Notes under the pieces: model-generated | Database searches by the model: none | Seen by the model: the letters and a program-made list of their open reading frames with translations, nothing else | Told to the model about the DNA's origin: nothing | Shown here: one piece after another, positions 13,851-62,028 of the stretch | Position numbering within the stretch: position 1 is the first letter of the stretch | Layout of the letters: every line of letters begins with the position of its first letter | DNA from: Candidatus Limnocylindrales bacterium | GTDB taxonomy: Bacteria; Moduliflexota; Moduliflexia; Moduliflexales; JAUQPW01 | DNA length: 64,000 bases | Assembly (NCBI GenBank): GCA_035559535.1 | Contig: DATMBG010000036.1 | Coordinates: forward strand, 62,001-126,000 | Reading direction: 5' to 3' | Program-made: the position numbers and the translations under genes

Positions 13851-13924
<74 letters not shown>

Positions 13925-26614: not shown

Positions 26615-26768
26615 GTAACTATACCAATTTAGTAGGTGTCACTTTTTCTGTCTGAACACCCCCCCATCCCCCCAGGGGGGACTGACATAGGGTTGCTGCT
26701 GCTGAATCCCCCCTGGAGGGGGATGGGGGGGGCGTTTCTTTTTCCACCTACTAAATGGATACGGATAC
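26615..26768. mobile_element. MITE family M1, full-length copy (154 bp)
   Basis: Imperfect 24-bp TIRs (GTAACTATACCAATTTAGTAGGTG / GTATCCGTATCCATTTAGTAGGTG); perfect 9-bp TSD gcttaaatg at 26606-26614 and 26769-26777. Confidence 0.9.
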
Positions 26769-55325: not shown

Positions 55326-56207
55326 TTAGATTAATTCAACCTCTCTTAACAGCTTTTTCAGATCTTCGATTTCTTCCTGATTGGGTGCTGGGAGAGGAGA
55401 TCGGGGTTTACCTCCGTAATAACCAACCAGGTCCATAGCGGCTTTGAGTCCTCCAATTCCATACTTAACCGTTACCCCCTTGGCCAGAGGCGTCATCCTA
55501 AACTGCTGTTGTCGGGCCCCTTTCAGGTCTCCCTGCTGATAGAGCTCCTGAATCCGAACCATCTCATCGGGAGCCACATTGGCCACAGCTACAATTCCTC
55601 CAACTGCTCCGACACAGAGGGCCGGTAATAAGACCAGCGCAGACCCTGTAAACGTACTAAAATGAGCCGGTGCCATTCGGACGATATCACTTAACTGGGC
55701 AATATTACCCGAGCTGTCTTTAATCCCTACAATGTTGGGGTGCTGGGCAAGCCGTGCAACCAGGTCGGCTTCTAGGTTGATCCCCGTGCACTGAGGAATG
55801 TTATAAAGGAGTACTTTGGTCTTGGCTTTGTCCGCTATGGTCATGTAGTGTTTATAGAGAATTTCCGATTTGGTCAGAGCGTTTTTGTAAAAACCGGGAG
55901 ATACAACCAAAACCCCATCAGCTCCAAGCTCTGCAGCCTTATTGGTTAACTCGATGGTTCCTTGAGTAGATTCTAAACCCGTTCCTACCAGTAAAACCTT
56001 CTCCTTAGGTACGACCTTTCGTGCGGTTTCGATGACCCGAAGTTTTTCCTGTTCGGTAAGATGAACCGGTTCACTGTTAGTTCCCAAAATCACATAACCG
56101 GCCAGCTTTGTCCGATTGAGCTTGGTTAAATTTTCCGCCAGTTTATCATAGGCAACCTCGTCCTCCTTAAAGGGAGTCGGAATAGGTGGAAGTATACCTT
56201 TAAACAT
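55326..56207 (-). CDS. DapA-family class I aldolase (HOGA-like)
   Basis: PPIPTPF, GTNSE in place of GTTGE, LLYNIP, Schiff-base Lys in [12 protein letters not shown]. Confidence 0.85.
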
Positions 56208-56437
56208 ATATGAGTCCGTTGCTATTGTCCATTGTCCGCTGTTACAGACAACTATCCAATGCTTAATAAAATTAATTAAAGGTACGATCTATTAAAAAAT
56301 CCAGAAGATAGAGGTAATTCCAACCAGATCTGGTCACAAAGATATCCTTATTACCTGCGTTTAAGAGAAAATTTTGTCTACCCCTATTTTCTTCAGTCTC
56401 TATGGCTAAATCTTGATCTGCAGGAGGATACTAAACT

Positions 56438-56467
56438 AAGTTATTACTTAATCTGTAAATATGTCAA
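56438..56467 (-). promoter_or_regulatory. Candidate sigma70 promoter of the aldolase-prfA operon
   Basis: TTGACA-18-TAACTT on the minus strand. Confidence 0.45.
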
Positions 56468-56483
56468 GCAAAACTTCCAGGCT

Positions 56484-56639
56484 GTATCCGTATCAATTTA
56501 GTAGATGGAAAAAGAAACACCCCTCAATCCCCCTCCAGGGGGGACTGACGTAGGGTTGCTGCTGCTGAAGTCTCCCCTCCAGGGGGGACCGGGGGGGTTC
56601 AGACAGAAAAAGTGACGCTTACTAAATTGTTACAGTTAC
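56484..56639. mobile_element. MITE family M1, full-length copy in opposite orientation (156 bp)
   Basis: Ends match the reverse complement of 26615..26768; flanks ttccaggct / ttcccggct (9-bp TSD, 1 mismatch). Confidence 0.88.
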
Positions 56640-56752
56640 TTCCCGGCTAAGGTCATCCGGGCTGGGAGAGGAATCATCTTTTTTGCTTGAAAATCGGTGG
56701 ATTTTAAGGTACTTTATTCCAGGGAATGCCCCTGGAGATCTTATACCTAAAA

Positions 56753-56780
56753 TAGGGCAGTCACAGAGGGCTGCCCCTAC
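56753..56780. repeat. GTAG-type REP palindrome
   Basis: TAGGGCAGTC...GGCTGCCCCTAC; similar small palindromes near 45452-45494 and 54177-54202. Confidence 0.6.
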
Positions 56781-56897
56781 AATTTAGGCCAGGTCTTCAT
56801 ATCGAACTGGTAGCAGGGATAAAACCACTAGGGGTTGTTTTTTATTGGGAGATTCCTCAAACCGATTTATGCTTAAAAGAGGGAGAAATATAAAAAA

Positions 56898-59396
56898 ATG
56901 AATTTATTTGGTTGGAGCGAAGTTAAACAGCTTCAGAGAGCTATCAAAAAGAATCCTAAGGATATAGGTTTGATTCTAAAGCTGGGCTGGTTATATCTTG
57001 ATGAGGGGAGATATGAGGAAGCTCGGGAACAATTTATGGCCGTCCAAAACCAGAACCCTGCTTCCTACTTTAAAGCCCAGGCCTGTCTGGGTCTGGCCAT
57101 CATTGACCTGAAGAAGGGAAATATAGATACAGCGAGGGAGAACCTCGAAACCCTTCTTCAAGAATCTGCCGAATTTCCAAGAAGTGCCGAAGCCCATTTC
57201 TATTTGGGAACCATCTACGAGAAGCAACTAAGGGAAGGTAAGGGCGACCGACCCATCGCCCAGGAGCCGGAAGTCCGGGATAAGAAACCAGAGGCAAGGG
57301 ATAGGAAGCCGGAAGTAAAAGACAGGAAACCGGAAGCAAGGGATAAAGGACCAAAAACCGAAGCCTCAGCGGGGATCTCTTTACTGGAAAAGGCCGCCCG
57401 GGAATATGAAGCTGCCATTGCACAGGGAGCCCAGGAGGCAAATAGAGCCAGATATCTGCTGGGGAAGCTTTATCTGGATTACGGACAGGGGGAGAAGGCT
57501 CTCCATTACCTGGAAACCGCCCTCAAAGAGGAGAAACTCGATAAAAGCTCGGCCACCAGACTCCCCCGGGCGGAAATCTATCATATCTTAGGAACTCTCT
57601 ATAAAACCCTTAAGGAGGACCTGGAAACATCCAAAAACTATCATCGCAGTGTTTTAGATCTGACTTCTCAACCGGCTTTATTGGCCTCCAGTCACAAGCA
57701 ACTCGGAGATATTTATCGAGAACAGACGCTCTATCCTCTGGCCCTGGATAGCTATCAAACGGCGATTAAATACTATGGAGAAAATCGATCCAGGGAAGCC
57801 TTAGAAGCCCATGTTGGTCTGGCCGAGATGTATCTCAAGGATGGTAACTTTAAGAAAGCTATCGAAAGTGGAGAGCGGATTTTATCCTTCGGAATTGAAT
57901 TTAAAGATCTTTTAACACGAATTTATGCCCTGCTGGCTCAGGGCTATCAACGGGTTGAGGCCTATGAGAAGGCCTTAGAGTTTCAGAAATTACATCTGGA
58001 ATCGGTCACCACGCCGGAGGAGAAGATCCTCTCCTTAACTCAACTGGCCCCCCTCCAGGAGAAGCTGGGTGAGTATGAGGAAGCCATAGAAATCTATAAA
58101 TCCGCCTTGAAACTCCAACCCGATCCTCAGACCGCTGCAGATATTCATCTGGCCCTTGGGCGGATTTACCTGTTGCAGGAGAAATATAGTCCGGCCATCA
58201 AGCAACTGGAAGATTCCCTCAAACTTCAAACCGTAGATGAAAAAAAGGCCGAAGCTTACCGTCTCCTGGGAGAGTGCTTTATAAAACGGGGAGACACCAA
58301 AAAAGGTATCGAGATGTTCGGGACTGTCATGGCCCGATATAAGGAACTGGATGTGGCCGCGGAAGTTAAAAGAGAGCTCAAAGATTTGAAAAAGGAGATT
58401 ACCCAGGAGGTAAAAGCTGAGAAGTTAGAAGAAAGTGAAGCCGAGCGACTCAAAACGATTGTTGACGAGGTTCTGGATGAGAAGGGGCTTTTTGAAAGAC
58501 TCAAACAAGGACTGGCCAGAACCCATCAAAATTTTATCAACAACCTGGAAGCCCTCTTAACCGGTAAAACCAGAATTGATGAGGATCTTTTGGAGCAGTT
58601 GGAAGAAGTCTTGATTCTGGCCGATTTAGGCGTCGATGCAACGCTTAAGGTTATTTCCAGTATTCAAAGTAAAGTCAAAAAGAAGGAACTTGAAGATCCG
58701 GCTCAATTGAAATCTCACCTGAAACGTGAGATTCTGGCTATTTTGAAAAATGGGGAAAAGGTAGTAGATATAAACCAGGCAACTCCTTTCGTGATCATGG
58801 TGATCGGGGTTAACGGGACAGGTAAAACCACCACCATCGGGAAGCTTGCCCATAATTTTAAAAAGGCGGGTAAACAGGTTCTTCTGGTCGCCGGAGATAC
58901 GTTTCGGGCTGCAGCCATCGAACAGTTGGAAATTTGGGGCCAGCGGGCCGGATGTGAAGTCATCAAGCACGAACCGGGGGCCGATCCCTCTGCGGTGATT
59001 TACGATGCCATGCAGGCTGCCAGATCCAGAAAAGCGGATGTCGTTATTATCGACACGGCCGGACGGCTTCACACTAAAAAGAATCTCATGGATGAGTTGA
59101 AAAAAATGAAGCGAATTGCCGGCAGAGAACTCCCCGGAGCTCCCCATGAAGTTCTCCTGGTGTTAGATGCCACAACCGGTCAAAATGCCATCTCTCAGGC
59201 GAAACTATTCCATGAAAACATCGGACTTACAGGGCTTATTCTAACTAAGCTGGATGGAACGGCTAAAGGTGGAATCATTACAGGGATTATCAACGAACTT
59301 AAAATCCCGGTTGCTTATATCGGGGTTGGTGAGAAACTTATGGATCTTCGACCTTTTAAGGCGGAAGAATTTGTGGAAGCTTTATTTGCAGAATAA
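56898..59396 (+). CDS. ftsY: Signal recognition particle receptor FtsY with a large N-terminal TPR array
   Basis: About 510 aa of TPR-like repeats in frame with [53 protein letters not shown]. Confidence 0.93.
57262..57352 (+). repeat. In-frame heptamer-periodic tandem repeat (PEVRDKK-type 7-aa units)
   Basis: aggagcc ggaagtc cgggata agaaacc agaggca agggata ggaagcc ggaagta aaagaca ggaaacc ggaagca agggata aaggacc. Confidence 0.85.
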
Positions 59397-59419
59397 AATT
59401 GGATTTTTACTTCATAAAA

Positions 59420-60433
59420 ATGACAAGTAGAGTAGGTATTATTGCAAATCCCTTATCTGGAAAGGATATTCGGCGGTTGGTTGCCCATGCGACGGTTGTA
59501 GATAATGTGGAAAAGGCTAATATCCTGCGTAAGATCCTCCTGGGACTGGATTCGATGGGTGTGGATGAGATTCTTATTATGCCGGATCAATACGGGCTGG
59601 GACATAGAGCTCTGAGTAACCTCTCGAAATTGAAAGCCACGGTCTCTTTTGTTGAAATGCCTGTAACCGGTTACCAGGAAGATACTGTAGAAGCCACCCG
59701 GATTATGCGGGAGATAGGAATCCATTGTTTGATTGTTTTGGGAGGAGATGGGACCAACCGGGCTGTTGCCAAAGAGTGTAGAGATATTCCTCTCATCCCC
59801 ATATCTACAGGGACCAACAACGTCTTCCCCTATATGGTGGAAGGAACCATTGCCGGGCTGGCCGGAGGTTGTATTGCCAGGGGGTGGGTCCCTATCGAGA
59901 CCATCACCTTCCCAACCAAGAAATTAAATATTTATAAAAATAATCGATGGATAGATCATGCCCTCATCGACGTAGTGGTTTCAAAAGATTTGTTTGTAGG
60001 GGCCAGGGCCATCTGGGATGTGAAAAGGATTTGGGAGATCATCTTAACCCGCGGAGAACCGACCCATATCGGAATGGCCTCCATCGTAGGAGCTTTTCAT
60101 CCGATTCCTGCAGACAGCGATACCGGCATCCATATAATCCTGGAAAACAGTCAAAGCGGGAGTAAGAAGCCCCCCTCTTTACAGATCCGATCTATGATTG
60201 CTCCCGGACTGAGTGAAGTCGTGGGAATATCCGAATACAAGATCTTGAATATCGGAGATCGGATTTCCCTTCATCAAAGACCGGCCACGTTAGCCTTGGA
60301 TGGGGAACGAGAGATTGAAGTTGGACCTCGGGATCGGATCGAGATAGAACTTTCAAAGGACGGTCCTCGGGTTGCGGATATCAAAAAAACCCTCCAGGAA
60401 GCCGTTGAAAAAGGGATTTTTCAGGTAAAGTAA
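59420..60433 (+). CDS. AcoX-like NAD(+)/NADH kinase family protein
   Basis: VGIIANPLSGKDIRRLVA, LGGDGTNRAVA, STGTNNVFP, LALDGEREI. Confidence 0.85.
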   Translation: MTSRVGIIANPLSGKDIRRLVAHATVVDNVEKANILRKILLGLDSMGVDEILIMPDQYGLGHRALSNLSKLKATVSFVEMPVTGYQEDTVEATRIMREIGIHCLIVLGGDGTNRAVAKECRDIPLIPISTGTNNVFPYMVEGTIAGLAGGCIARGWVPIETITFPTKKLNIYKNNRWIDHALIDVVVSKDLFVGARAIWDVKRIWEIILTRGEPTHIGMASIVGAFHPIPADSDTGIHIILENSQSGSKKPPSLQIRSMIAPGLSEVVGISEYKILNIGDRISLHQRPATLALDGEREIEVGPRDRIEIELSKDGPRVADIKKTLQEAVEKGIFQVK

Positions 60434-60471
60434 TTTTTCAGAATCCAAAGGAAAGGACCCAGATCGGCCTT

Positions 60472-62028
60472 CTAGGTCGATTTTTCTACGATTCTTCCTT
60501 CCACCTGGGGCGAAATGACCCCTTGTTTCTGAATGTATTCCTGGAGCAGATCGATCAAACGGATGTGAGTATCGTGGTAGTTTTTTCTATTCTCCAAAAA
60601 GATAATATAACCATCTCCCCCCTCCGCCAGGTAGTTGGTGGTTGAGACCTTATACAGGCGATCCGGTACCAGCGGGGTTCCGTGTACCTTGACTTCCAGA
60701 ACTCTTTTTCCCAGGGGAGCCTTAGCGTTATAGGTATAGGTCAGCCCGGAGACCTGCAGGAACCGTCCGGCTCCCTTTTCAACCTGACTCACACTGTTTT
60801 CCAGGGCTTCCCGAATGTCTGCCCCGGTGATCTGGAAGGTTACGAGGGTGTTTCCTAAAAAGGGGAATACCCGATAAAGATCTCCCAGGGTAATATCCCC
60901 TTTCTGGATAGACGCCCGAATAGCCCCTGCGTTAATGAAAGAAATATCCGTTTGGGTATGGCTTCGTATCATGTCGGCGATGAAATTTCCCAAATTAGAT
61001 TCCCGGGAACGAATCCAATCCCGCTCCCCGTTGAGTTCTACCTGGGTTTTTCCGATAACCCTTTTCAGATCCTGGTTTAACTGGTCGGAGTAAATCTTTA
61101 AAAGGTGGGCAACTTCCTCATCGGGCTGGAGAACCCGGCTGTTAATGGGAATATTTTCGGCTTTTGCCTTTAGGATCTTTCCGTTTTCAACGACCAGGTC
61201 CAATCTACCCAGCGTTTTTCCCTGTCTATGGGTTTTAACATAAATCGTTGGGGGGTTTTCCAATTCCCTCATCGAAGCGGTTGATACCCGGGGGGTGGAG
61301 GAATCAACAGGCAGAATCCCATCGAAACCTTCGGTATGACCTCCGATAATGACATCGATTTCCGGAACCGCCTTAGCTAAGGCAATATCATCCTCATTAT
61401 CCTGGTGGGTCAGGGCAATAATAAGATCTACCCGATGACGAAGGGTCGAGACCACTTGATGGGCCAGAGGGATAGGATCCAGGACAGTAATCTGCTTAAC
61501 CAGGGCAGGGTTCATGATCTCTCGAGCTTCTACCGTGGTAAGACCCAGTACCCCTACTTTCAGACCATCGAATTCTCGAATCATCCAGGGTTGCGCCAAA
61601 TTAGGTGAGGAGGAGGTGGTATCTCTTCGTTGGATATTCGCACTCAGGAAAGGAAATCGGGCCAGATCCCTTAAATTTTGAAAAGCCGTAAGTCCAAAAT
61701 CAAATTCATGATTTCCGACCGTTACGGCATCGTATTTCATCGAATTCATAGCCAGAACATCGGGAACTCCTTTAAAAACGGTCGACATTAAAGTCCCTAT
61801 CAGAAGATCTCCGGAATTCAAGAGTAACACATTCTTTTCCTTAGCCCGAATTTCCTTAATAACGGTTGCCTGATAGGCCAGCCCTCCCATTCCATCTTCA
61901 TCGGGTAAGGCAGTTCCGTGGTGCTCACTGGTATGGAGAATGGTTAAACGGGTTTCGGCTTCAAGGACGGCAGGAAAAAAGAATCTGATTAAAAGTAGAG
62001 TTATTATAAACAGGCGTTGAGTTCTCAT
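60472..62028 (-). CDS. Exported 5'-nucleotidase / UDP-sugar hydrolase family metallophosphoesterase
   Basis: Signal peptide; GD, GNHEFDFG, IIGGHT, ESNLGNFIAD, FLQVSG, YLAEGGDGY. Confidence 0.9.
   Translation of the reverse strand: MRTQRLFIITLLLIRFFFPAVLEAETRLTILHTSEHHGTALPDEDGMGGLAYQATVIKEIRAKEKNVLLLNSGDLLIGTLMSTVFKGVPDVLAMNSMKYDAVTVGNHEFDFGLTAFQNLRDLARFPFLSANIQRRDTTSSSPNLAQPWMIREFDGLKVGVLGLTTVEAREIMNPALVKQITVLDPIPLAHQVVSTLRHRVDLIIALTHQDNEDDIALAKAVPEIDVIIGGHTEGFDGILPVDSSTPRVSTASMRELENPPTIYVKTHRQGKTLGRLDLVVENGKILKAKAENIPINSRVLQPDEEVAHLLKIYSDQLNQDLKRVIGKTQVELNGERDWIRSRESNLGNFIADMIRSHTQTDISFINAGAIRASIQKGDITLGDLYRVFPFLGNTLVTFQITGADIREALENSVSQVEKGAGRFLQVSGLTYTYNAKAPLGKRVLEVKVHGTPLVPDRLYKVSTTNYLAEGGDGYIIFLENRKNYHDTHIRLIDLLQEYIQKQGVISPQVEGRIVEKST

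Follow-up and report, generated by a model that had tools for sequence, protein, structure and literature searches.

FtsY of a Moduliflexota bacterium carries a TPR arm in place of an acidic A domain

The window analyzed here is a stretch of 64,000 nucleotides from Candidatus Limnocylindrales bacterium (contig DATMBG010000036.1; GTDB phylum Moduliflexota). According to the open reading frame listing and the translation, positions 56898..59396 (+) hold an ORF of 832 amino acids with an ATG start and no internal stop codon. The initial annotation had described a single uninterrupted frame of this length joining TPR repeats to a targeting helix and an NG GTPase, and the listing, the translation and Pfam matches all bore this out. 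The features of the gene are as follows.

56898..59396, + strand: whole ftsY gene, 832 amino acids plus stop codon; TIGR00064, 361.4 bits (cutoff 260.7)
56898..57242, + strand: TPR block N, the cap helix plus ~2.5 repeats, residues 1–115; Pfam and AlphaFold2 helices within 2–112
56901..56951, + strand: basic amphipathic cap helix, residues 2–18; AlphaFold2 helix 2–18 or 4–18, pLDDT ~87–91
57243..57377, + strand: predicted disordered insert rich in Pro, Glu, Lys and Arg, residues 116–160; pLDDT about 30–36
57378..58337, + strand: TPR block C, a predicted superhelix of nine helix pairs, residues 161–480; Pfam TPR_16, TPR_12, TPR_19, TPR_2 and TPR_1, and AlphaFold2
58338..58478, + strand: charged helical linker, residues 481–527; AlphaFold2 helices 485–506 and 512–526
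58479..58532, + strand: predicted membrane-targeting amphipathic helix at the N-domain junction, residues 528–545; alignment to E. coli GFFARLKRSLLKTKEN
58533..58784, + strand: N domain, helical bundle, residues 546–629; PF02881 and AlphaFold2 helices 531–554, 562–574, 579–594 and 601–617
58785..59393, + strand: G domain, SRP-type GTPase with P-loop, residues 630–832; PF00448, Foldseek and phmmer

The NCBIfam ftsY equivalog model TIGR00064 matched the protein at residues 560–830, and the ffh and FlhF profiles both fell below their own cutoffs (231.2 against 473.2 bits and 67.9 against 174, respectively). The SRP54 GTPase family PF00448 was found at residues 630–830 with 267.2 bits (cutoff 22.7), directly preceded by SRP54_N, PF02881, at residues 548–611 with 49.6 bits (cutoff 22.4). 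Pfam detected no M domain, the G domain being the C-terminal end of the protein. The P-loop, DTAGR and TKxD motifs (the last as TKLD) are present and are invariant across 36 proteins. The closest comparison was to E. coli FtsY, the NG structure of which (7o9h) matched the window NG in Foldseek with 54% identity and a TMt of 0.93. Alignment with phmmer paired residues 524–831 with E. coli residues 188–494 (E 8e-103) and included the targeting helix, where the E. coli stretch GFFARLKRSLLKTKEN aligned residue by residue with window residues 528–545. Outside the G domain no other stretch is as conserved as this helix, in which 11 of 18 columns are at least 90% identical among 34 proteins. It has a net charge of +2 and a hydrophobic moment of 0.41, and a membrane-binding role is predicted. 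As judged from sequence, residues 528–832 are a canonical FtsY membrane-targeting helix and NG GTPase. The N-terminus had been described as free of a transmembrane segment or signal peptide, and Kyte-Doolittle analysis in 19-residue windows agreed: the maximum, 1.65, fell at residue 571 within the N domain, and the five top windows (down to 1.26) all started at residue 568 or later.

The window gene is the single SRP receptor of this organism. Its genome contained two SRP54-GTPase matches, namely the window gene and an Ffh of normal size (442 amino acids) encoded on contig 50; a second ftsY, for which the initial annotation had recommended a search, was not present in this genome. The SRP RNA was found on contig 22 of the same genome, matching RF00169 with 69.9 bits and RF01854 with 206.2 bits over model positions 1–256. 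Each of eight other genomes of the phylum likewise encodes one long FtsY and one Ffh-sized frame.

Ahead of the targeting helix, TPR families exceeded their Pfam cutoffs across residues ~8–510. These were TPR_16 (107.2 bits; cutoff 32.7) and TPR_12 (91.7 bits; cutoff 30.1), along with TPR_19, TPR_2, TPR_1, TPR_8, TPR_14, TPR_7, TPR_6, TPR_17 and TPR_11. An AlphaFold2 model of the arm placed 25 helices between residues 4 and 526, with pLDDT mostly 88–97 except in the insert and a short loop at residues 211–220, and with a pTM of 0.71 for the arm alone. The model depicts a folded superhelix of about 12 TPR repeats, with a lysine-rich cap helix at the tip and a two-helix linker at the base. The ~510-residue TPR solenoid of the initial annotation thus stood as a folded TPR array but not in its extent: TPR occupies residues 1–480 in two blocks with a 45-residue disordered insert between them, and is followed by a helical linker (residues 481–527) and then by FtsY (residues 528–832).

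The cap helix has a hydrophobic moment of 0.60, among the highest in the protein (mean 0.27, S.D. 0.14), and its residues Lys-10, Lys-14 and Lys-18 are at least 90% conserved. The first 25 residues carry a net charge of +3 in the window protein and of +1 to +7 in 36 of 36 aligned proteins. Block N matched TPR_17 at residues 13–44, TPR_6 at 27–56 and YfiO at 34–114. The insert contains a 21-nt tandem repeat of 3.3 copies, detected by TRF at 57277–57346; at full length it is confined to the closest relatives of the window protein, and most of the phylum has ~10 residues there (alignment columns ~135–185). Block C is the best-predicted part of the model, with pLDDT mostly 90–97. The top Foldseek matches of the arm were the OGT TPR domain (1w3b; E 2.2e-13) and an 8-repeat consensus TPR (8chy; TMt 0.87), and SPINDLY matched with a TMq of 0.58; this fold search returned generic TPR superhelices only and gave no functional pointer. 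The linker is net acidic (pI 4.8), with Lys-495, Lys-499, Glu-514, Glu-516 and Arg-517 conserved. In the TPR blocks the conserved residues also include His-100, Arg-112, Tyr-170, Arg-341, Lys-376 and Glu-388. Conserved polar residues lie on both A and B helices and mark no obvious groove, and neither an asparagine ladder nor another groove signature was seen among the invariant or near-invariant columns of the alignment.

Misassembly or a gene-call artefact was rejected as the source of this architecture, since the parts are fused in relatives and in contigs of two other studies. TPR and NG are collinear in nine of nine genomes of the phylum (KSB3, Moduliflexus and Vecturithrix being among the relatives), and seven of these, the organism's own included, have complete open frames. 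In the eight other genomes, all of which have the two parts collinear, the check for fusion in relatives that the initial annotation had suggested was borne out: six have complete ORFs of 808–832 amino acids, one ORF is ended by a contig edge and one has a frame break, the last in an assembly that is 77% complete. Database clusters (n = 33; 802–832 amino acids) showed 39–96% identity across 97–100% of the query, and in the NG tree they group with the query in a single clade of 34 rows with an SH-like support of 97. The junction near 58400–58500, singled out for confirmation at the outset, is spanned without gaps by contigs of the two other studies, X3 covering 56892–59500 in one piece and X7 covering 57696–58813. 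Comparison with a genome of the same genus gave dN/dS values of 0.13 for block N, 0.08 for block C and 0.054 for NG, and by this sequence measure the TPR arm is under purifying selection. The fusion is real and old.

A phmmer search of residues 1–520 against 1.84 billion representatives gave four matches below 1e-30, these being an FtsY of 808 residues, a TPR-only protein of 505 residues and two giant multi-TPR proteins; the remaining listed matches were generic TPR proteins. A TPR-pattern scan of the genome contigs found at least 75 loci, and among the matches listed only four, each from the phylum of the window, combined the TPR pattern with an FtsY P-loop in one ORF.

Long FtsY proteins were also found in a second phylum, where 18 of 18 genomes (G009–G026) have one FtsY above cutoff (examples are P0110, P0117, P0087 and loci L093–L099). 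The open frames measure 624–772 amino acids in 16 of the 18, TPR-family matches were present at the N-terminus in every member examined, and the long protein is the sole FtsY in each of four genomes checked. As in the window protein, a basic N-terminus, helical repeats, a lysine-rich helix, the targeting helix and NG follow one another in the same order. The N-terminal parts of the two phyla matched profile to profile and collinearly from one end to the other (probability 97.4%, E 1.4e-11, 361 columns); the second-phylum proteins are, however, shorter, and the arms are only 21% identical. The tree does not resolve their NG domains as sister to the window clade. A common origin of the two arms is possible from these sequences but is not demonstrated, because repeat proteins inflate profile scores. 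With one long FtsY throughout the phylum of the window and the second phylum, and TPR-like N-terminal parts in every second-phylum member examined, the design is lineage-wide in at least two phyla.

Downstream of ftsY is an NAD-kinase-like gene in the window and in the same-genus relative, and upstream is a GFO/IDH/MocA oxidoreductase in two scanned loci of the other family of the phylum. The neighbors differ between the two families, so synteny gives no functional clue. Rfam search of the whole window detected only a tRNA (13851–13924) and nothing near ftsY. Promoter and terminator scans of 56100–60600 returned 6 and 4 sites, respectively, not above the numbers in shuffled sequence (means of 6.2 and 5.8).

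Comparison of the window protein with known SRP receptors locates the difference in the region before NG. The targeting helix and NG core of E. coli FtsY are 54% identical to those of the window protein, but the E. coli A domain, residues 1–187, has no counterpart there, the alignment beginning at the targeting helix. Where E. coli has this strongly acidic, disordered domain, the window protein has ~527 residues of predicted folded TPR and helical linker that are only mildly acidic. The claim that this part is not an acidic disordered A domain was sustained by its pI of 5.9, its net charge of −7 over 527 residues, its confidently predicted helices and its failure to align with E. coli residues 1–187. 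Some forms of FtsY carry an N-terminal transmembrane anchor; they share the NG core and the role of SRP receptor, but none of the five top hydrophobicity windows of the window protein starts before residue 568. In eukaryotic SR-alpha the NG core is also preceded by a folded domain, which makes a protein contact to the membrane side (SR-beta) and may be a functional analogue of the arm. That domain, SRX, is a small alpha/beta domain and not a TPR array.

TPR docking modules are known from protein targeting, in receptors of the Sec72, Tom70 and Sgt2 types. SRP72 of the eukaryotic SRP, in the excerpts of PMC5224484 and PMC5907831, also has TPR as a docking module in targeting, as the window arm may. 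However, SRP72, Sec72, Tom70 and Sgt2 are separate proteins that act on the SRP side or in post-translational routes, and none of them is known as a fusion with an SRP-type GTPase. These TPR targeting proteins did not stand out as specific matches by fold or by sequence, and in Foldseek Tom71 (3fp3) came only at rank 44 among generic TPR matches. The JGI label "fused signal recognition particle receptor" is presumably a generic name for the FtsY orthology group, not a reference to this TPR fusion. A literature search found no published description of a TPR-FtsY, in keeping with the initial view of the architecture as undescribed; it is widespread inside two phyla yet uncharacterized.

The excerpted text of PMC2572998 describes the E. 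coli A domain as variable in size and sequence, with roles in membrane anchoring, in translocon interaction and possibly in GTPase regulation, and reports membrane binding by a sequence of positive charge at the N-terminus. E. coli FtsY (PMC2572998, excerpt) and the window protein both have positive charge at the extreme N-terminus. According to the same excerpt, most bacterial and archaeal receptors consist of the NG core alone, targeting is still efficient, FtsY as such is not defined by having an A domain and the eukaryotic receptor has a separate membrane-anchoring subunit. NG-only FtsY has the same catalytic core and SRP-receptor role as the window protein but, in that text, no large soluble N-terminal domain.

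The explanation that we favor, and on balance consider probable, is that this protein is the sole FtsY of the organism, with a canonical NG and with a TPR arm doing the job of an A domain. Its two parts differ in strength. By homology, the C-terminal 305 residues almost certainly work as in E. coli FtsY. The NG part and targeting helix would bind the membrane and pair with Ffh and SRP RNA on a ribosome-nascent chain complex, and reciprocal GTP hydrolysis would then hand the cargo to the translocon. It is plausible, though somewhat doubtful, that the arm performs the A-domain job in structured form, as a docking or regulatory platform. Two membrane-proximal contacts would then come from the basic tip and the targeting helix, and the rigid solenoid between them would offer a docking surface for SecYEG, YidC or a ribosome feature; the arm could also gate the NG domain until docking. 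The basic N-terminus found in 36 of 36 aligned proteins and the amphipathic cap helix parallel the A domain and suggest docking. Against a membrane contact, TPR arrays usually bind proteins rather than lipids, and in the AlphaFold2 model the cap helix turns its hydrophobic face onto the solenoid, which would leave only the face with the lysines free. The efficiency of NG-only receptors (PMC2572998, excerpt) also tells against docking, making the arm an add-on that may not be necessary. The density of conserved polar residues rises in the last four repeats and the linker, a pattern as compatible with a cis contact with NG as with docking. Complex prediction of the arm (residues 1–527) with the SecY of this genome scored 0.00 in two runs without controls and speaks neither for nor against binding.

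A different function for the arm, which we regard as rather unlikely, is that of an adaptor that recruits a third component to the SRP receptor, such as a chaperone, a quality-control protease, SecA, a pole or septum landmark, or an SR-beta-like membrane anchor. This would link targeting to another process or confine it to certain membrane sites in these filamentous cells. TPR superhelices are protein-protein interaction modules, the nearest solved folds by Foldseek (OGT, SPINDLY, LGN/Pins and consensus TPR) all hold peptides or proteins as partners, and the arm is kept across the phylum under purifying selection. The N-terminal block is moreover a separate module of 2.5–3 repeats on a variable loop, just below the cutoff of the TPR chaperone family SctY (63.7 against 70), and FlhF, a further SRP-type GTPase, has a polar landmark protein as its anchor (PMC11236974, excerpt). 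However, no partner was identified, gene neighbors are not conserved and the conserved residues contain no asparagine ladder or groove signature; the initial annotation's proposal of a scaffold to a specific partner (translocon, chaperone, division protein or protease) is so far unsupported. An Hsp70 tail as the ligand was rejected, as neither DnaK paralogue has an EEVD-type tail (their C-termini read ...AEFEDIK and ...AEYTKKP), leaving the classical Hsp70 carboxylate-clamp mode without an obvious ligand. It is unlikely, too, that the arm recruits a dedicated partner (a membrane anchor, a chaperone or a positional landmark) across at least two phyla. If it did, these bacteria would have a three-part receptor with a logic like that of SR-alpha/SR-beta or of organelle TPR import receptors, and filamentous or thermophilic cells could choose the site or the clients of co-translational insertion.

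Quite unlikely, in our judgment, is a purely cis-regulatory arm that masks its own targeting helix or Ffh-binding face until the receptor encounters the membrane or translocon, with no dedicated external partner. It would be the structured counterpart of an autoinhibition that has been proposed for the A domain of E. coli FtsY; this domain possibly regulates the GTPase cycle (PMC2572998, excerpt). It is consistent with arm conservation that is highest next to NG, the lowest entropies being at residues 393–405, 430–443, 467–480, 485–506 and 512–526; entropies are lower still in helices 4–18, 96–112 and 162–175. Conserved charges (Lys-405, Arg-422, Arg-464, Glu-468, Glu-472, Lys-495, Lys-499, Glu-514, Glu-516 and Arg-517) and a linker modeled as a conserved pair of long charged helices, not a floppy tether, point the same way. 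On the other hand, the model of the whole protein has a pTM of 0.55, against 0.71 for the arm alone, so no confident fixed packing of arm on NG is predicted, and a solenoid of ~480 residues far exceeds the needs of a mask. That the cell instead relies on a short NG protein as its functional receptor, produced by internal initiation or by proteolytic cleavage, with the TPR part dispensable or acting separately, is highly improbable. In its favor, a 505-residue protein (P0124), a single member on a single 3,788-nt contig, consists of the TPR part only and ends at the targeting helix. An internal start yielding NG only, a possibility raised in the initial annotation, finds no support in the sequence among codons 401–641: none of the in-frame start candidates there preceded by a Shine-Dalgarno motif is an ATG, and the translation is free of Met between residues 485 and 634. 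This leaves GTG 486 (AGGA) and TTG 565 as the only candidates, the latter of which would remove the targeting helix, and the alignment has no conserved internal Met before that helix. The arm is in frame with NG in seven of the eight other genomes of the phylum and under purifying selection, and 16 of 18 second-phylum genomes have a long frame of at least 624 amino acids. A dispensable part would not stay in frame so long.

FtsY is a universal, essential protein, and few GTPases are as well understood as its NG core. What its N-terminal extension does is still debated, since in the model organism this part is disordered, variable and partly dispensable. Here a whole phylum, and apparently a second, has fixed a large folded domain in the A-domain position and maintained it by selection in the only receptor. 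For annotation this is a caution, as the database name "FtsY" hides an unexplained 500-residue domain in these lineages. Because the arm is predicted to be folded, it can be crystallized, deleted, mapped and used as bait, which makes the A-domain question tractable, and it may show directly what the N-terminal part of the SRP receptor contacts at the membrane.

The ftsY gene and the domains assigned to its product are as follows.

Features of the ftsY gene and its product
56898..59396, + strand: ftsY ORF, a single unbroken frame of 832 codons with an ATG start
Residues about 8-510: many TPR families (Pfam, every one above cut-off)
Residues 548-611: SRP54_N (Pfam)
Residues 630-830: SRP54 GTPase domain (Pfam)

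The purine-rich sequence AGAGGGAG is located 12-19 nt 5' of the ATG. The protein scored 361.4 bits against the NCBIfam FtsY equivalog model (cutoff 260.7) and was far under the cutoffs of the Ffh and FlhF models. Comparison with solved structures matched residues 524-831 to residues 188-494 of E. coli FtsY (E about 1e-102). This match begins exactly at the membrane-targeting helix, and no match to the E. coli FtsY A domain was found in the protein. No transmembrane segment or signal peptide was detected by hydrophobicity analysis over 19 residues; the top segment (1.65) lies within the N domain, and the five highest all start at residue 568 or beyond. The initial annotation, which described a single ORF joining TPR repeats to the targeting helix and NG domain and saw neither a transmembrane segment nor a signal peptide, is thus correct on ORF, Pfam, NCBIfam, and hydrophobicity evidence. 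The predicted role of the protein as an SRP receptor follows by homology from its canonical NG core with targeting helix.

The organism's own genome (95.8% complete) encodes two SRP-type GTPase domains, one in the ftsY product and the other in a canonical 442-aa Ffh, and contains no second ftsY. Its SRP RNA (contig 22, 317433-317699) fits the large Bacillus-type model with an Alu domain along the whole of that model (positions 1-256, 206 bits), and not the small 4.5S type alone. A collinear TPR-plus-NG match, together with one Ffh-sized frame, was present in all nine genomes analysed from the phylum, the organism's own included, which confirms the fusion in related genomes. Complete ftsY ORFs of 808-832 aa were observed in six of the eight other genomes; in one the gene runs off the edge of a 2.6-kb contig, and in one 77%-complete assembly it is split into overlapping 289- and 507-aa ORFs. 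A large protein collection yielded, among the matches listed, 33 clusters of 802-832 aa that cover 97-100% of the query at 39-96% identity. Candidatus Vecturithrix granuli and candidate division KSB3 are among the source names, and related loci carry the names UASB14, Vecturithrix, and Moduliflexus. The TPR-NG join is also bridged by contigs from sequencing runs of other studies: X3 spans 56892-59500 unbroken, with 128 differences and gap-free, and X7 spans 57696-58813. Contig X1, which may stem from the source sample, does not count as independent evidence. The dN/dS values against a same-genus genome (0.13 for the N-terminal TPR block, 0.16 for the insert between the blocks, 0.08 for the C-terminal TPR block, and 0.054 for NG) indicate that the arm is translated and under purifying selection.

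AlphaFold2 models of the whole protein (36 aligned sequences, mean pLDDT 84, pTM 0.55) and of residues 1-527 alone (mean pLDDT 86, pTM 0.71) gave the same order of parts.

Predicted parts of the arm (AlphaFold2)
Residues 2-18: N-terminal cap helix
To residue 112: about 2.5 TPR repeats after the cap helix
Residues 116-159: disordered stretch
Residues 162-480: nine helix pairs (pLDDT mostly 90-97)
Residues 485-506 and 512-526: two long charged helices
After helix 512-526: targeting helix, continuous into the N domain

The insert at residues 116-159 is rich in Pro, Glu, Lys, and Arg and is encoded in part by a 21-nt tandem repeat (57277-57346); at full length it is restricted to the closest relatives, with about 10 residues in most of the phylum. 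Among solved folds, the arm comes closest to TPR superhelices of a generic kind, namely the TPR domain of OGT, consensus TPR proteins, SPINDLY, and LGN. Superposition of the modeled NG part on that of E. coli FtsY gave TMt 0.93 at 54% identity. The part preceding NG is mildly acidic (pI 5.9; 5.2-6.7 across 36 proteins). All 36 begin with a basic stretch (charge +1 to +7 over the first 25 residues), and in 34 of them the linker of 42-61 residues that leads to the targeting helix has an acidic pI (4.4-5.3). The amphipathic moment of the cap helix is among the highest in the protein.

In a FastTree analysis of NG parts from the query and 120 listed matches (121 rows), 34 proteins of this type formed one clade with support 97, and five other TPR-bearing FtsYs (P0035, P0044, P0110, P0117, and P0087) fell in the same unresolved polytomy. 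When residues 1-520 were searched with phmmer against 1.84 billion representatives, four proteins came out under 1e-30: an 808-aa FtsY of the phylum, two giant multi-TPR proteins, and a 505-aa TPR-only protein. The last (P0124), known from one sequence on one 3,788-nt contig, is the arm of a relative alone, breaking off shortly after the targeting helix begins; it could result from a frameshift or represent a genuinely split gene.

A second phylum was reached via P0117, with 18 species-level genomes of 1.2-2.0 Mb and loci labelled Aquificales, Aquificota, Deferribacteres, or Thermodesulfobacteriota. Each of the 18 has one FtsY above cutoff; its open frame is 624-772 aa long in 16 genomes, and 507 aa (at a contig start) and 391 aa in the other two. 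FtsY was single, beside an Ffh, in the four genomes checked, one of which has an FlhF-sized frame. TPR-family matches were confirmed in three of these FtsYs, and the N-terminal parts examined, from six proteins that were aligned, are TPR-like and have the same order of parts as the window protein. Profile-profile comparison of the two phyla's N-terminal parts gave a probability of 97.4% (E 1.4e-11, 361 columns, 21% identity), collinear end to end; because repeat proteins inflate such scores, we regard a common origin of the arms as no more than possible. P0087 (493 aa) and locus L096, both from a "Deferribacteres bacterium" on 15,287-nt contigs, are presumed to be one gene. P0087 apparently begins at an internal Met, and the true start probably lies upstream of the annotated one, since the extra N terminus of the 699-aa frame at L096 aligns with relatives.

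Two further genes were assigned in the window.

Other genes in the window
59399-60433: NAD-kinase/diacylglycerol-kinase-like gene, 344 aa, TTG start by ORF finder
13851-13924: tRNA gene, the only Rfam match above gathering score in the window

The kinase-like gene begins 3 nt past the ftsY stop, and the two are probably co-transcribed; a same-genus genome has a 337-aa ORF at the equivalent position. At the two loci scanned from the phylum's other family, a GFO/IDH/MocA oxidoreductase lies upstream of ftsY instead. The 690-bp gap 5' of ftsY carries a repeat of about 140 bp that is dispersed in the genome and in which a CCCCTCCAGGGGGGAC-like palindrome occurs twice (56500-56640, and also about 26615-26752). 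The repeat has 57 matches in the genome, about 30 of them near full length (73-87% identity) on many contigs, and X1 depth rises there from 29 to 388. Partial matches on the opposite strand coincide with these copies, which points to inverted symmetry within the repeat; it looks MITE- or REP-like. A second short repeated stretch (56745-56794), with a GGGCAG...CTGCCC hairpin, is the sole matching piece for several unrelated contigs from four runs.

PMC2572998 describes the FtsY A domain as variable in size and sequence, aiding membrane anchoring and translocon interaction and possibly regulating the GTPase cycle; membrane binding is ascribed to an N-terminal sequence with positive charge, and NG by itself can suffice. 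The window protein retains a basic N terminus and the targeting helix, with a predicted rigid solenoid between them. We tentatively favor the view that the arm would stand in for the A domain in folded form, as a docking and gating platform near the membrane. The main rival, that the arm is an adaptor bringing a third component to the receptor, seems to us less likely. The DnaK tails provide no ligand of the EEVD type, and the genes neighboring ftsY are not the same in the phylum's two families. Polar residues that are conserved cluster more densely toward the end of the arm, in its last four repeats and the linker, a pattern that does not discriminate between the readings of the arm. A purely cis-regulatory arm is more doubtful still. 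A functional form consisting of NG alone is hardly to be expected, as no ATG was found among the Shine-Dalgarno-preceded in-frame start candidates of codons 401-641. These comprise GTG 486 and TTG 565 only, Met is absent between residues 485 and 634, and a start at TTG 565 would lose the targeting helix.

Among the papers listed by full-text searches of mostly open-access literature, no description of a TPR-FtsY fusion was found in titles and abstract starts, and the terms FtsY, "signal recognition", TPR, and tetratricopeptide have 0 occurrences in the main text of the paper on the KSB3 genome (PMC4312070). The fusion is real and its gene well defined, and the idea in the initial annotation that the arm might scaffold the SRP receptor to a partner is a reasonable hypothesis. 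This form of SRP receptor, in which a conserved TPR arm takes the place of the A domain, is fixed in one candidate phylum and, it appears, in another; the arm offers a tractable way to approach what the N-terminal region of FtsY does, a question that has long been unclear.
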